Assembly: GCF_030013205.1 (NCBI RefSeq)
Contig: NZ_CP122648.1
Length of the DNA stretch: 64,000 nt
From: Escherichia coli
GTDB lineage: Bacteria; Pseudomonadota; Gammaproteobacteria; Enterobacterales; Enterobacteriaceae
Reading direction: 5' to 3' (one strand)
How positions within the stretch are numbered: position 1 is the first letter of the stretch; every line of letters starts with the position of its first letter. The position numbers and the translations under genes were made by a program. Under the pieces are notes generated by a model. The model was not told the origin of the DNA. It was given only the letters and a program-made list of their open reading frames with translations, and searched no databases. Positions 2,032-16,916 of the stretch are shown piece by piece.

Positions 2032-2211
2032 ATGTCACTGTCAATTGTTCATACCCGCGCAGCCCTGGGAGTAAATGCGCCCCCAATCACTGTTGAGGTA
2101 CATATCAGTAAAGGTCTACCCGGCTTAACGATGGTGGGCTTACCAGAAACAACGGTAAAAGAAGCCCGCGATCGCGTGCGCAGCGCCATTATCAATAGCG
2201 GATTTTTATAA
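2032..2211 (+). pseudogene. comM: comM (yifB) 5' fragment, truncated by island insertion after codon ~57
   Basis: Translation MSLSIVHTRAALGVNAPPITVEVHISKGLPGLTMVGLPETTVKEARDRVRSAIINSGF then diverges (L, stop) at the junction; the rest of the gene resumes at 16913. Confidence 0.85.
2194..2203. repeat. attL core copy (aatagcggat)
   Basis: Identical 10-mer at 16907..16916; lies at the exact point where the comM frame breaks. Confidence 0.5.
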
Positions 2212-2300
2212 ATTAGTGTTTTTTGCTGTTTCATAATGTGCCACGTTGTTCATTATGTTTTTGATTTTTAAGTCTATTACAATTTTCATTGTTCCAGCTT

Positions 2301-2353
2301 GTTCCACGTTGTACCCCTTTGTGCAATGATCGGTGTAGTCACTGGTGTAGTCA
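2301..2353. repeat. Subterminal left repeat (gttccacgttgt ... cggtgtagtcactggtgtagtca), candidate integrase arm-type site
   Basis: Imperfect ~55-bp direct repeat of 16781..16838 near the opposite island end. Confidence 0.45.
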
Positions 2354-2391
2354 TTTTTTTTGCAAACAGGGGAGGAAATGTGAGCAGAGCA

Positions 2392-3609
2392 ATGAACAAA
2401 CTGAGCGACACATTGTTAAGAAAACTTCATGGTAAGCCGGCGGAGAAAAATACGTTTTATAGCGATGGCGGAAATCTGAGCGTGAAATATTTAACATCAG
2501 GGAAATTGACCTGGTATTTCACTTACAGGGCGGGAACGGGAAGGGGTACACCACCGGAACGCCTGAAGCTGGGAAATTATCCTGATCTGAGCCTGAAAGC
2601 AGCCAGGGAAAAAGCAGCACAGTGTCGCGCATGGCTGGCAGAAGGAAAAAATCCACGCCATGAGCTTAATTACTCCATACAGGAAGCACTAAAGCCGGTA
2701 ACGGTGGGCGATGCGATCAGCTACTGGCTGGAAATGCACGTAAAGGAAAACCGTGTCGATTACGTATGCCTGAAAAGCCGCCTTAATAATCACGTCATAC
2801 AGCATATTGGCAATATGCCACTGGATAAATGCGAGTTACGTCACTGGCTGGCCTGTTTTGACCGGATACGCAAAAAATCACCCGTAACATCTGGCCACAT
2901 GATGCAGGCGTGTAAACAGGCGCTTAAGTTCTGCCGTAAACGTCGCTACGCAGTCAGTAACGTTCTGGATGATCTCAACGTGGTGGACGTTGGCAAAAAG
3001 CCGGGCATAAGCGAACGCGTGCTGAGCAACAAAGAACTGAGCGAATTATTACAGGCGCTGGATAAAAAAATATTCCCGCCCTACTACAGCGCACTAATCC
3101 GCCTCCTGATTGTGTTCGGCTGCCGGACCGGAGAACTGAGGCTGTCGGAGATCAGGGAGTGGGATTTTAAGGAAATGCTCTGGACAGTACCGAAAGAGCA
3201 CAGCAAAACGAAGGTCGCCATATTCAGGCCAATACCGGAAAGCATTTTGCCGTTCGTCACACAGCTGGTGGAGCAGAACAGGCACACAGGGCTATTACTC
3301 GGGGAACTGAAACAGGAAGCCAGCGTGTCGCAATACGGCAGATTCACGCACAAAAAATTAAACCATCCGCACTGGTCACTACACGATATACGGCGCACGT
3401 TTACCACGATGCTGAACGATTTAGGCGTGGATCCACATATTGTCGAACAACTCACCGCTCACCAGATGCCAGGGATGCAACGAGTCTATAACCACTCCCG
3501 TTATATCGATGCGAAACGTAATGCGCTGGATATGTGGACAGAGCGATTAGAGATACTGGCAGGTGCTCACGAAAACGTAACCACACTGCCAATAGCCAGA
3601 GAAATATAA
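2392..3609 (+). CDS. int: Tyrosine recombinase / phage integrase
   Basis: ORF 2299..3609; likely start ATG 2392 (MNKLSDT) after GGGAGGA at 2368-2376; C-terminal HDIRRTF...VYNHSRY region consistent with a tyrosine-recombinase catalytic domain; abuts attL. Confidence 0.85.
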   Translation: MNKLSDTLLRKLHGKPAEKNTFYSDGGNLSVKYLTSGKLTWYFTYRAGTGRGTPPERLKLGNYPDLSLKAAREKAAQCRAWLAEGKNPRHELNYSIQEALKPVTVGDAISYWLEMHVKENRVDYVCLKSRLNNHVIQHIGNMPLDKCELRHWLACFDRIRKKSPVTSGHMMQACKQALKFCRKRRYAVSNVLDDLNVVDVGKKPGISERVLSNKELSELLQALDKKIFPPYYSALIRLLIVFGCRTGELRLSEIREWDFKEMLWTVPKEHSKTKVAIFRPIPESILPFVTQLVEQNRHTGLLLGELKQEASVSQYGRFTHKKLNHPHWSLHDIRRTFTTMLNDLGVDPHIVEQLTAHQMPGMQRVYNHSRYIDAKRNALDMWTERLEILAGAHENVTTLPIAREI

Positions 3610-3627
3610 TTTTTTTCGCGATTTTTC

Positions 3628-3690
3628 AGAACGGACACAACGTGAAACAACGAGACACAACGACGAACAACGGCGAACAATCTGGAACAA
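3628..3690 (+). repeat. Array of six ~10-bp direct repeats (RAACAACG family) downstream of int
   Basis: acacaacg tgaaacaacg agacacaacg acgaacaacg gcgaacaatc tggaacaaac read directly from sequence. Confidence 0.4.
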
Positions 3691-3976
3691 ACTTGATTAT
3701 CATCTGACCGACACCCTAAAAAGTTGATTTTCAGTCGTTTTACTGGCTTTTTGTACATTGGCGAATCACTCTTAAAAACATGTAAAAAAGGCGTAAAAAC
3801 AGAATTTTACGCTACCGCATCACAATGAATTAAAAGAGTTTTTATTCTCATTACCCCACTTCTGTAAAACGACCGCCACCAGTGTTTGCCATTCCATAAA
3901 CACCCTGACACAATCCGACCCAACCCAACCCAATAATCCACCCAATGACTCTTTAAGAAACAACAAAGGGGGAATT

Positions 3977-4165
3977 GTGTTAAGCACAGATCGCTTTATA
4001 CGTGAAAAAGAATGTCAGCAACTTACAGGCCTGAGCCGTTCATGCCGCTACCGCCTGGAAAAAGCCGGACAATTCCCATCACGGCGTAAACTCGGTGGTC
4101 GTTCCGTTGGCTGGTCTTTATCCGAAGTTCTGGCATGGAAGGACAGCCGCGAGGCAGTTCACTAA
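3977..4165 (+). CDS. alpA: AlpA-family phage transcriptional regulator (62 aa)
   Basis: GTG start after AAAGGGGGA; translation LTGLSRSCRYRLEKAGQFPSRRKLGGRSVGWSLSEVLAW resembles the AlpA/prophage CP4-57 regulator HTH. Confidence 0.7.
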   Translation: MLSTDRFIREKECQQLTGLSRSCRYRLEKAGQFPSRRKLGGRSVGWSLSEVLAWKDSREAVH

Positions 4166-4217
4166 TCAGGCTGGCGGCACACAGCCGCCTCCCATCCACT
4201 AATACAGAGATTTAACC

Positions 4218-14994: not shown

Positions 14995-15045
14995 TTTAAA
15001 TACACGCGCTTTCCGGCGCATTAATACAGTCTGAGGGGAAGTGTC

Positions 15046-15573
15046 ATGTTTATGAGCAAGGCAGAATATGCCAAACACAAAGGCGTAAGCCGCCAGACAG
15101 TTTACGACTGGATCGAGAAAGGCGAAGTGGTCATGTCCGGTAAAAAAATCGATGTGGAAGCGACAGAGCAGCGGAACAGCCCACCAGCACAGGGAAAAGA
15201 CACAGTTTCTGAAATGTGGCCAGAGAGAACGCTGGAAATGACGTGGGGCGAGTTCTGGAAAGCAGTTAAGGCCAGAGACGGTAAAATCCCTGCACCAGTA
15301 ACGGACAATGACATACAGCAGCGTGTACAGGATGCAGCCGGGGAACTATGCTGTGAAGTGCAATTTCTTGATGATGGTGCTATCTGCCTTGAGGATTATG
15401 CTGGGCAATATTACTTTGAGCAGTATGATTTTCGGGAAAATGCCAGGCTGGCAATTCGTATGCTGCGTTGTGAGCTCTGCTATGTTGCAGGTGATTGTCC
15501 CGATGAGCTGGATAACTGGAGTGAAGCCGGACTAAACGCCCTGGCTGAGTGGGAAAAATCAGGCCATCAATGA
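15046..15573 (+). CDS. HTH protein resembling small-terminase/Rpp-type packaging proteins (175 aa)
   Basis: N-terminal SKAEYAKHKGVSRQTVYDWIEKGEV helix-turn-helix; GAGGGGA SD; followed by a dense repeat array. Confidence 0.55.
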   Translation: MFMSKAEYAKHKGVSRQTVYDWIEKGEVVMSGKKIDVEATEQRNSPPAQGKDTVSEMWPERTLEMTWGEFWKAVKARDGKIPAPVTDNDIQQRVQDAAGELCCEVQFLDDGAICLEDYAGQYYFEQYDFRENARLAIRMLRCELCYVAGDCPDELDNWSEAGLNALAEWEKSGHQ

Positions 15574-15578
15574 CCTCA

Positions 15579-15860
15579 AAAAGTGTCAAGTTGAGCAGCT
15601 TGCCAGGTTGACACTTTACACTCTGAACGCGAAAAAGTGTCAACCTCGCTGTAAGCCCCGCCATTACTGGCCTTTCGCCAGATTTACCACGTCAAAAAGC
15701 CGAAAAAATCGCGAAAAGTGTCAAGTTGCCATGCTTAGAAATGCTAAGGTTTGATAAGGTTTTTCGCGAAAAAGTGTCAAGTGTGTCAACCTGCGATGTT
15801 AAGATTTGTTAAGGTCTTAAGCCGGAAAGTGTCAACCAGCCCCTAAGATTTCCTAAGGTG
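15579..15860. repeat. Repeat array: at least 6 direct and 1 inverted copy of (CGCGAAA)AAGTGTCAA(C/G), plus 3 copies of TAAG(R)TTTNNTAAGGT; candidate packaging (cos/pac) site
   Basis: Copies at ~15579, 15608 (inverted), 15634, 15714, 15769, 15783 and 15826; second family at ~15743, 15797 and 15838. Confidence 0.55.
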
Positions 15861-15865
15861 TAAAT

Positions 15866-16045
15866 CATGACCATCACCGAAGCCGATATGCTGGAGATGA
15901 TCCGCAGCATTGCCGGAATCAAACAACCTGCAAGCAAAATTAACAGGTGTTCAGCGCCTGTTTCCGTTGTGCTGCAACAGGAACGCCACCAGCAGGATGA
16001 TGTGAGGCCGTATCAGTGGAAGAAACCGGACAGGCCGCGACGGTG
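15866..16045 (+). CDS. Possible small ORF (59 aa)
   Basis: ATG 15866 preceded by AAGGTG; below the ORF-track size cutoff; weak. Confidence 0.25.
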
Positions 16046-16780
16046 AGCGGAGCGTTCGGTAAGGCTACAGCCAAGCCTTACATTAAGCCTACGGGTAACC
16101 CTTCGAAGGGGCTTTAAAGGGGAGATGATTATCCTTACCCGTTGATAAACAAGCAAACCTCAAATTTGAGGTTTGTATCTGCCTGACTTATTTTTGTGCT
16201 AAGTTGTTGATATATCCGACGACGCAAAATTGCGCTGGCTACATCCCTCACATCTGAGGACTGTTAACCAGCAAGCCGGAATATATTCACAAACTACGAA
16301 ATTTTCGCAGTTTAATTACTCGCCAGCTTAATCGCTAACCCGTTGATTGTTCCAGAATCCCCCATTGGGGAAAACTGGAAAACTCACCCTCCAGATTCTG
16401 AATGGTGAAAATCACCGGGGATCTGAATAGGCATTTCCTCTATGGAGGTCGCACCGTTTTCGGGAGAAGGTGCGATCATGTTCGTCATACCTGTTCCGTT
16501 GAAACGGAATACCCCATTCCGGCGTAGCTGGTGGACGCACAGCCACATACGAAAAATTGCATTCAGGAGGGGGGATCGAAATCCCTACAACCTATTGCTT
16601 ATGGGACCGCACGCCTCGTCAAATTTTTACACCCGCGAAAAATACTTCATGCTGGTGGGCATGATGCCGATATGGGGATCCCCATAACGGGTTATCCGTG
16701 ATCATCCACCAGCTTCATTTAGAACTATGCAAATCTGCATAGAAAAATCGTCCCTTCCTGTATATCGCTTGTGTCTATTT

Positions 16781-16838
16781 GTTCCACGTTGTTGCATACA
16801 GTGCACCGAACGGTGTAGTTAATGGTGTAGTCAATTTG
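16781..16838. repeat. Subterminal right repeat, partner of 2301..2353
   Basis: gttccacgttgttgcatacagtgcaccgaacggtgtagttaatggtgtagtcaatttg. Confidence 0.45.
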
Positions 16839-16906
16839 CGATTTTTAACGTTATTTGTAGTGATATTTATCGTTTAAATTCAATAAATTAAATTGTTTTA
16901 ATTATA

Positions 16907-16916
16907 AATAGCGGAT
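16907..16916. repeat. attR core copy (aatagcggat)
   Basis: Identical to 2194..2203; the comM frame resumes immediately after it. Confidence 0.5.

Follow-up and report, generated by a model that had tools for sequence, protein, structure and literature searches.

A 14.7-kb island in yifB of Escherichia coli ETEC4079 is probably a phage satellite with a myovirus-type virion-gene module

Introduction

What kind of element splits the yifB (comM) gene in a 64-kb stretch of Escherichia coli DNA, and what is its cargo for? The stretch, hereafter the window (64,000 nucleotides), is a 100% match to the chromosome of the enterotoxigenic E. coli (ETEC) strain ETEC4079 (NZ_CP122643.1; source pig faeces), and within it a 14.7-kb island interrupts yifB. 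An earlier note on this DNA had read the island as a satellite and taken most of its cargo, between 8910 and 14994, to have no function that the eye can recognise and hence to be the best candidate in the window for a new phage-interference or defence system. Our analysis indicates that the insert is probably an integrated phage satellite of the E. coli phage-inducible chromosomal island (PICI) family, known as EcCI, most likely adapted to Rac-SA53-like temperate myoviruses. Three features set the element apart from the PICIs described so far: an EcCI-backbone satellite at a new attachment (att) site, a module in which a phage scaffold/protease is split in two, and, in some copies of the island, a cassette that encodes a tail assembly chaperone and a tape measure protein (TMP). 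Literature searches on DUF2213 or on tape measure and tail chaperone proteins in satellites, and on Rac-SA53, turned up no description of such a module.

Results

The island occupies a variable site within yifB

The yifB frame is interrupted at 2203 and picks up again at 16917. The 10-mer AATAGCGGAT occurs exactly twice in the window, at 2194–2203 (attL core) and 16907–16916 (attR core), against a chance expectation of 0.12, and two copies appeared in none of 100 shuffles. By eye, each copy forms part of a longer imperfect 16-mer repeat with one mismatch (ATTATCAATAGCGGAT at 2188–2203; ATTATAAATAGCGGAT at 16901–16916). The 5' fragment of the gene (2032–2205, + strand) consists of 57 codons and two island-derived codons followed by a stop, and the 3' fragment runs from 16901 to 18265 (+); both are pseudogene fragments in the Prokaryotic Genome Annotation Pipeline (PGAP) annotation. 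Joining 2032–2203 to 16917–18265 in silico yields an unbroken YifB/ComM frame of 507 codons. Of 5426 complete E. coli genomes, 5396 have the rejoined 600-nt empty site in unbroken form (with 100% identity in one), and therefore occupancy of the site is rare and variable; related islands fill it in ETEC1748 and PapRG-04-4. These results bear out the earlier note's description of a comM gene split between two copies of a 10-mer, since the frame is restored on rejoining and intact genomes show that occupancy varies. The insert spans 2204–16916; a tyrosine integrase put the element into a 10–16-bp site within yifB, which is not among the EcCI att sites listed in 2018 (Fillol-Salom et al., PMC6092414).

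Just inside both ends lies a tandem GGTGTAGT motif, at 2332–2353 (+; ~130 bp inward of attL) and again at 16812–16833 (~75 bp inward of attR), with two matches where none was expected. The motif is similar to the published EcCIDI14 att sequence, and the pair has the look of putative integrase arm-type sites.

The same architecture recurs at four att sites

The features that define a PICI were found as follows: firstly, a tyrosine integrase gene (2380–3609, +, reading inward; phrog_1, E 3e-70; PGAP) stands at one end, and direct repeats flank the island at a specific att site; secondly, an AlpA-family regulator gene (3977–4165, +; Pfam PF05930, E 3.4e-18) lies beside it; thirdly, the island has a replicase of its own with a putative iteron origin directly 3'. 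At 14.7 kb the island also fits the PICI range of ~8–15 kb. That range is defined for elements without tail or lysis genes, and here the island departs from it through its chaperone and a TMP with a muralytic domain, whereas sister islands that lack the cassette conform in this respect too. As for genes of capsid morphogenesis and packaging, scaffold/protease homologues are present, and a helix-turn-helix (HTH) protein shares only a winged helix with TerS-N and RppC.

PHROG and NCBIfam searches of all island open reading frames (ORFs) gave no match to P4 Sid, Psu, Delta, Eps or the alpha primase-helicase, and PHROG searches and PGAP found no portal, terminase, major capsid, sheath, tube, baseplate or lysis-cassette gene in the island. 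Among the genes typical of capsid-forming PICIs (major capsid, portal, protease, head-tail connectors, terminase), none is present save the protease/scaffold-derived pair. The island therefore belongs neither to the P4-like nor to the capsid-forming PICI satellites. The PICI-type layout and the lack of the P4 set that the earlier note had proposed both stand, the island being a discrete integrated element of PICI layout and size.

Sister islands share one 12–15-kb architecture at four att sites, namely yifB, abgR/smrA, tRNA-Pro and tRNA-Gly, and some of these are published EcCI sites: abgR/smrA is the 'lysR-smrA' site of EcCIEC2733.1, and yejM is likewise in use. Since the sister islands have the same ends and gene order at all four sites, the yifB island is not a fragment of a larger prophage, an outcome against which its satellite nature had been meant to be judged.

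Two of the sisters reside in ETEC4079 itself, one at tRNA-Pro (yejM/yejO; locus L010, NZ_CP122643.1 ~1,811,900–1,824,600) and one at tRNA-Gly (actS/yecR; locus L013, ~957,100–972,100). Their integrase, AlpA and replicase differ from those of the yifB island, and in both the chaperone protein is identical to that of the yifB island. The TMP, HTH and 59-aa proteins are identical to those of the yifB island in the tRNA-Pro island only, having different accessions in the tRNA-Gly island; the DUF2213 protein of the tRNA-Pro island is ~98% identical. A second small element adjoins the tRNA-Gly island (L013 17800–27400); it carries a recombinase gene and a major capsid protein gene and is possibly a satellite of a different type.

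Homologues of myovirus virion genes make up most of the cargo

The region from 10944 to 14994 encodes homologues of the head- and tail-morphogenesis proteins of two related phages, E. coli phage Rac-SA53 and vB_Apl-pPE4 (pPE4). In these phages a single protein of 440 aa (pPE4 gp46) or 430 aa (Rac-SA53) serves as protease/scaffold. The island's 194-aa protein (10944–11528, +), a putative alternative scaffold, is homologous over its C-terminal 130 aa to the C-terminal part of this protein (65% identity to gp46 residues 305–433; phrog_6216 positions 405–545), and the 227-aa DUF2213 protein that follows (11593–12276, +) is homologous to its N-terminal 226 aa (54% identity to the first 226 residues of gp46; phrog_6216 positions 115–326; a weak head maturation protease match). 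Thus, one phage protease/scaffold gene corresponds to two separate island genes in swapped order. PGAP labels the 194-aa gene (10944–11528) 'NUDIX hydrolase', an assignment that no profile or NCBIfam family supports; the label looks to have been inherited from a 'nudix' note on the Rac-SA53 protease/scaffold gene.

The next gene (12273–12955, +) begins with a G-like ORF of 205 aa (12273–12890), which is 85% identical to pPE4 gp55 and 82% to rac52 of Rac-SA53, phage genes that sit between the tube gene and the TMP gene. Within it, the heptamer TTTTTTT at 12653–12659 opens a -1 frame of ~100 codons whose stop falls exactly at the ATG of the following gene, and the heptamer, the open -1 frame and its peptide are kept in one sister island and in both phages. 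Such a frameshift is a hallmark of lambda-type G/GT tail assembly chaperones, in which it is reportedly conserved. The 205-aa gene is a predicted G/GT-type tail assembly chaperone, its frameshift being read from the sequence, and this signature fixes the next gene as that of the TMP. This 679-aa protein (12955–14994, +) is 89% identical to pPE4 gp56 over residues 1–501 and matches phrog_7694; its residues 508–638 match solved endolysin-type domains, forming a C-terminal muralytic domain.

Pfam gave no significant family for the 205-aa and 679-aa proteins, nor for the 257-aa and 175-aa proteins described below, and PDB sequence searches with the HTH protein, the 257-aa family and the phage protease/scaffold returned no matches.

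These assignments overturn two statements of the earlier note. It had held that the island has no capsid genes, and head- and tail-morphogenesis homologues occupy 10944–14994. It had also held most of the cargo to be unrecognisable by eye, and in addition to the Rac-SA53-type virion homologues at 10944–14994, the stretch 9716–10530 encodes a ProQ/FinO-family and a PerC-family protein. A PADLOC search of ten island proteins (8919–15573) gave mad1 as its sole match, at E 0.007 over 26 aa, which is not significant. The supposed undescribed defence cargo appears to be mostly replaced by a helper-derived morphogenesis module.

A 57-aa protein (10732–10905, +) heads the module, with 57% identity (E 7e-17) to an ORF that precedes the ejection-protein genes of L011, an island resembling EcCIMP1. 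This 57-aa ORF, which has no family match, stands directly before helper-derived virion genes in two PICI lineages with unlike helper types (10732–10905 in the window; 10341–10514 in L011) and may be a conserved leader or regulator of the virion-gene module.

The chaperone–TMP cassette is optional and maintained

The chaperone and TMP genes form an optional cassette of 2.8 kb, inserted between the last DUF2213 codons and the start of the HTH gene, with phage homology from the chaperone ATG onwards. In the ETEC1748 island, which also lies in yifB and is 99.4% identical, the DUF2213 gene passes directly into the HTH gene, as it does in the islands of PapRG-04-4 and FDAARGOS_1058. Among the 5426 genomes, the island-type left cassette junction was found in 14 and the island-type TMP 3' end in 10, and the cassette-free junction of ETEC1748 type in 18. 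An island variant in strain W13-16 (NZ_CP080235.1 571029–571702) has the end of a sheath gene and a whole tail tube gene beside its DUF2213 gene, which suggests that some islands have phage-derived tail cassettes of larger size.

Over most of its length the island TMP shares ~95% identity with an allele that prophages carry, for example that of strain A17. Its last ~25 residues (within 14885–14994) are a private version common to all island copies, ending in ...AGADYFAQLIGAQRFLG, whereas the phage TMP tip, ...PGSDILAQLAGTQQIPG, is nearly invariant across three phage alleles with unrelated muralytic domains. Comparison of island copies across different att sites gave ratios of nonsynonymous to synonymous substitution (dN/dS) of 0.03 for the DUF2213 gene, 0.10 for the chaperone, 0.15 for the TMP, 0.22 for the 194-aa gene and 0.27–0.35 for the HTH gene. 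All five genes are under purifying selection.

These observations bear on whether the cassette is a neutral passenger without function in the island, acquired when the island recombined with a helper prophage. Such an origin would fit its optional nature, seen in a near-identical island at the same site without it, the closeness of most of it to a prophage allele, and its clean junctions at gene boundaries. We nevertheless think this explanation rather unlikely: the cassette is intact in at least 10–14 genomes and at four att sites, dN/dS between island copies is only 0.10–0.15, the frameshift signal is kept, and the one C-terminal tip common to the island copies is unlike every phage allele examined.

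The module points to Rac-SA53-like phages as likely helpers

Pairwise identities between the island virion proteins and those of pPE4 range from 54 to 89%; Rac-SA53 is similar for three of the four module genes, its TMP being only ~51% identical. A homologue of the 205-aa chaperone occurs in 14 of 50,697 phage records, and a DUF2213 homologue in the same 14, and the module therefore points to one phage lineage. PHROG annotation of Rac-SA53 gives the order portal, head-morphogenesis, protease/scaffold and major head genes, with sheath, tube, the chaperone/TMP pair and baseplate genes later; the pair stands between tube and baseplate genes in Rac-SA53, in pPE4 and in the A17 prophage. The pPE4 record, PP818812.1, is named 'Actinobacillus phage vB_Apl-pPE4'; its chaperone and TMP (residues 1–501) are 85–89% identical to proteins of the ETEC4079 island and its gene order is that of E. 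coli phage Rac-SA53, and Actinobacillus, its stated host, looks doubtful.

Rac-SA53-like sheath and tube genes are present in 88 of the 5426 E. coli genomes (1.6%). They were found in at least 17 of the best 25 island-bearing genomes, where 0.4 would be expected (hypergeometric P ~7e-26, ignoring strain relatedness). Strains that have both a sister island and such a prophage include ETEC4090, STEC005, A17 and PapRG-04-4. The genomes that match the island best came from pigs, goats, a crow, a baboon and an otter, among other hosts, and several continents are represented.

An HTH gene and a repeat array lie near the right end

Behind the module, a 175-aa HTH protein (15046–15573, +) is a putative packaging-specificity factor. 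Its N-terminal winged helix is of the TerS-N, Rpp or Xis type, and its alpha/beta C-terminal domain is unmatched. Sequence similarity to RppA is confined to 25 residues. The features of Rpp proteins, a TerS-like DNA-binding domain with a helical dimerisation domain as in RppC (6HN7) and homology to RppA, RppB or RppC, were not found together in it. We considered whether the protein is a genuine homologue of Rpp or TerS and rejected this, its likeness to TerS-N and RppC ending with the winged helix.

Directly downstream, AAAGTGTCAA occurs in six exact copies within 256 bp (15580–15835), five direct and one inverted and interleaved with TAAGRTTTG repeats, and nowhere else in the window. These copies are putative binding sites in a cosB/pac-like arrangement. 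Six repeats follow the HTH gene in all six islands examined, and the array is absent from both phages and from EcCICFT073. By analogy with TerS/cosB or Rpp, we infer that gene and array may act as a packaging-specificity unit. With ~1.1 kb between the array and the att core, the HTH protein is less likely to act as an excisionase.

A conserved hypothetical protein of 59 aa (15867–16046, +; PGAP; sister islands) is followed by an 860-bp non-coding right arm (16047–16906), which holds the second arm-type site and in which 16757–16888 shares 85.6% identity with the right end of EcCICFT073. The sister island at abgR/smrA (locus L009) carries extra cargo between the 59-aa gene and attR, a DUF4747 gene and a hypothetical gene at 12328–13820. 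This position is a second variable hotspot, empty in the yifB island.

Backbone, regulatory and accessory genes

All island genes read from left to right but one (YlcI/YnfO), and all annotated genes are intact save one Icd-like copy. An AntA/KilAC antirepressor-family protein (4218–5018, +; phrog_5817, E 6e-42) precedes a variable regulatory region (5293–6252) that contains an Icd-like pseudogene (5293–5650, +), the YlcI/YnfO gene (5646–5843, -) and an Icd-like gene (6049–6252, +). Three small coupled genes (6245–7098, +), which encode proteins of 121 aa and 66 aa and a 96-aa DUF4222 protein, are kept in sister islands and lead into the gene of a RepA-family replicative helicase (7095–8507, +; phrog_2850, E 2e-220, and helicase-primase families), the last of a translationally coupled operon (6049–8507). 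Sister islands have a primase/DUF927 protein in its place. The AT-rich iteron region that follows (8507–8910; 33% G+C) is a putative origin, placed 3' of rep as in PICI origins, and contains seven copies of AAAAGTGGGK in both orientations within 8507–8825, including a perfect inverted repeat of 38 nt.

Nearly all of the inventory that the earlier note had given for the island was confirmed, from the integrase, AlpA-like and antirepressor-like genes through the coupled operon with its terminal helicase and the iteron-rich origin to the terminal HTH gene with its repeat array. The exception is a repressor/operator switch: no CI-type repressor is recognisable in 5019–6050, which contains the Icd-like pseudogene and the YlcI/YnfO gene. 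An Rfam scan of 1500–17500 returned only an ilv leader outside the island and one sub-threshold match after perC, and therefore no C4- or IsrK-type immunity RNA. The leader match, Rev39_5p_UTR (1500–1750, - strand; 123.6 bits, E 7e-37), lies around the ilvL/ilvX leader peptides and just downstream of them and before ilvG, just outside the island. Promoter and terminator scans gave counts not above shuffled expectation.

At the start of the cargo, a ProQ/FinO-family RNA-binding protein (9716–10246, +; NF010317/NF003434 matches under the curated cut-off; PGAP) is followed by a PerC-family regulator (10243–10530, +; phrog_994; PGAP) typical of E. coli PICIs. Two structures of hairpin and U-tract lie right behind perC (10534–10603), ~290 bp downstream of the ProQ/FinO gene, with the sub-threshold Rfam match and a terminator-scan match; they are a possible small-RNA partner of the FinO-domain protein.

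A 257-aa accessory protein (8919–9692, +) is encoded in a hotspot downstream of rep and the origin that varies between sister islands, and it is the sole true unknown left among the cargo. Pfam, PADLOC and PDB sequence searches gave no match. A protein database holds 26 clusters of homologues, none functionally named and all organism-named ones enterobacterial, and the predicted model is confident (pLDDT 88), with structural matches only to generic winged-helix proteins and uncharacterised AlphaFold entries. The gene is absent from five sister islands (L002, L008, L009, and the tRNA-Pro and tRNA-Gly islands L010 and L013), and a 67%-identical homologue stands at the equivalent position in L011. 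The 257-aa gene lies in the accessory region downstream of pri, in which PICIs have yielded Tai defence genes, and could itself be a new gene for defence or regulation.

Discussion

How might such an island spread? By analogy with EcCICFT073, SaPIs (Staphylococcus aureus pathogenicity islands) and EcCIMP1, a signal from the helper phage would switch on AlpA, whereupon the island would excise and RepA would replicate its DNA from the iterons. The 194-aa scaffold-tail and DUF2213 proteins may then compete with the helper protease/scaffold and bias capsid assembly; the island is roughly a third as long as the two deposited phage records (47.5–52 kb). The HTH protein, bound to its repeat array, would steer the helper terminase to island DNA. 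The optional cassette could supply satellite-producing cells with a tape measure bearing the private C-terminal tip, which, built into the tail and first out at infection, might alter tail assembly or DNA delivery in favour of the satellite. The 257-aa gene after the origin would be accessory cargo. By analogy with the capsid-gene homologues of EcCICFT073, the region 10944–14994 is proposed to be a helper-exploitation module.

Several points weigh against this satellite reading and its helper assignment. The island's repeat region showed no DNA similarity to the terS-proximal part of the two phages, and neither were helper cos or pac sites found in the island nor island repeats in the phages. 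The co-occurrence statistic ignores kinship, and a single study of pig ETEC supplied several of the genomes. No Rac-SA53-like prophage was seen in ETEC4079, which is not among the 79 listed of the 88 matching records. Finally, we infer excision, replication, packaging and transfer by analogy, for this island as for every DUF2213-type sister, and small-capsid formation and any role of the TMP purely so.

The virion-gene homologues could instead be primarily a host anti-phage device, with decoy scaffold, chaperone and TMP poisoning the assembly or injection of Rac-SA53-like phages (in the manner of Tai/Tab, or as superinfection exclusion) and not serving island spread. PICIs are known to carry tail-assembly-inhibition genes, the island TMP departs from phage TMPs exactly in their otherwise invariant C-terminal tip, and three copies of the module persist in ETEC4079, which seems to lack a resident helper. 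We regard this as quite unlikely, given that PADLOC found no match, that the module occupies the place of the hijack genes in validated PICIs and is linked to an HTH and repeat unit of packaging type, and that a simple poison would have no need of the G/GT frameshift and full-length TMP, both of which are intact; besides, interference and self-spread can coexist in a satellite. A decayed full-size prophage remnant or a P4-like satellite, to which the phage-derived structural genes and integrase, or the int, alpA and primase genes that P4-like elements also have, might point, is very improbable in view of the exact att repeats around a site that is intact elsewhere, the want of portal, terminase, capsid, sheath, tube, baseplate and lysis genes and of PHROG or NCBIfam matches to Sid, Psu, Delta, Eps and alpha, the recurrence of one 12–15-kb architecture at four att sites, and genes that are intact save one Icd-like copy, five of them under purifying selection.

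Taking the island as a PICI-type satellite, what could the tail cassette do? In EcCIMP1 (NZ_CP139039.1, 5981–11149), the primase gene is followed by DUF2824, a hypothetical gene, a 'phage DNA ejection protein' and a 906-aa lytic transglycosylase, and in the EcCIMP1-like L011 (10341–14090) P22-type ejection proteins stand behind the 57-aa ORF, with the PHROG annotations 'released from the phage upon host infection' and 'DNA transfer protein'. The EcCIMP1 paper does not call its DUF2824, ejection and transglycosylase genes ejection proteins (PMC11773190). Two PICI lineages with unlike helpers thus both carry proteins predicted to leave the virion first and to build the DNA conduit. We tentatively raise the possibility, which we hold to be well short of probable, that E. 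coli PICIs recurrently carry private versions of their helpers' DNA-delivery proteins (chaperone and TMP for a myovirus helper; a gp20/gp16-type ejection set in EcCIMP1) and so change which cells can be entered, with the island TMP tip as the specificity determinant. A variant delivery protein, in transducing particles or in the cell, might bring satellite DNA into helper lysogens past superinfection exclusion or, conversely, exclude the helper. Evading or imposing exclusion is a plausible purpose because P22 SieA exclusion is overcome through changes in gp16 and gp20. If this is true, private delivery proteins would form a functional class of satellite cargo that has had no name so far.

The island matters in other respects too. 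Satellites are usually defined and searched for as tail-gene-free, and the SatelliteFinder PICI model makes tail genes 'forbidden' because they are almost never found in satellites; the family of this island contradicts that rule, and detection rules that forbid tail genes may miss or misfile such elements. A standard PICI backbone can take in whole helper-derived virion gene sets, among them a frameshifting chaperone and a TMP, and one ETEC genome can contain as many as three such islands. The module yields a concrete and testable helper assignment, Rac-SA53-like phages, some of which have LT-II toxin genes, and a candidate new route for satellites to manipulate tail assembly or DNA entry. 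Most of the former mystery cargo is explained, with one 257-aa gene left.

Among known systems, EcCI11128 (at the yejM/tRNA-Pro site) and the yifB island have a common backbone of int, AlpA, YlcI, Icd-like, DUF4222 and RepA. EcCICFT073 resembles the yifB island in its left-end integrase, AlpA, replication gene with iteron origin and PerC; it, too, has genes homologous to those of helper virions and, near the right end, a small protein with an N-terminal HTH (Fillol-Salom et al. 2018, PMC6092414; 2019, PMC6739421). In EcCICFT073, which is mobilised by lambda and phi80, PerC is followed by homologues of the lambda-type major capsid and decoration proteins and then by RppA at the right end, whereas the yifB island has the split protease/scaffold, tail chaperone and TMP of a myovirus lineage; it is also larger, at 14.7 kb, than the published E. 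coli PICIs of 8.5–11.9 kb. EcCIMP1 shares the backbone of AlpA, AntA, DUF4222, Icd-like, primase and PerC genes and experiments have shown that the P22-like phage Kapi1 mobilises it (Pick et al. 2025, PMC11773190). It differs in its podovirus helper, its tRNA-Thr att site, its length of 20 kb, its ejection proteins in place of TMP and chaperone, and its lack of DUF2213 and scaffold genes.

As in SaPI CpmB, SaPIbov5 Ccm and P4 Sid, a satellite gene here keeps only the capsid-facing part of a helper head-assembly protein, and the ratio of satellite to helper genome is ~1:3. The alternative scaffold CpmB, like Ccm and Sid, redirects capsid size. There is no sequence relationship between these proteins and those of the yifB island, whose helper protein, a fusion of DUF2213 protease and scaffold, is present as two reordered genes. 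The slippery heptamer and the overlapping -1 ORF, which stops where a long TMP gene begins, have their likeness in the G/GT and TMP genes of lambda-type phages, the pair being satellite-encoded in the island and phage-encoded in lambda.

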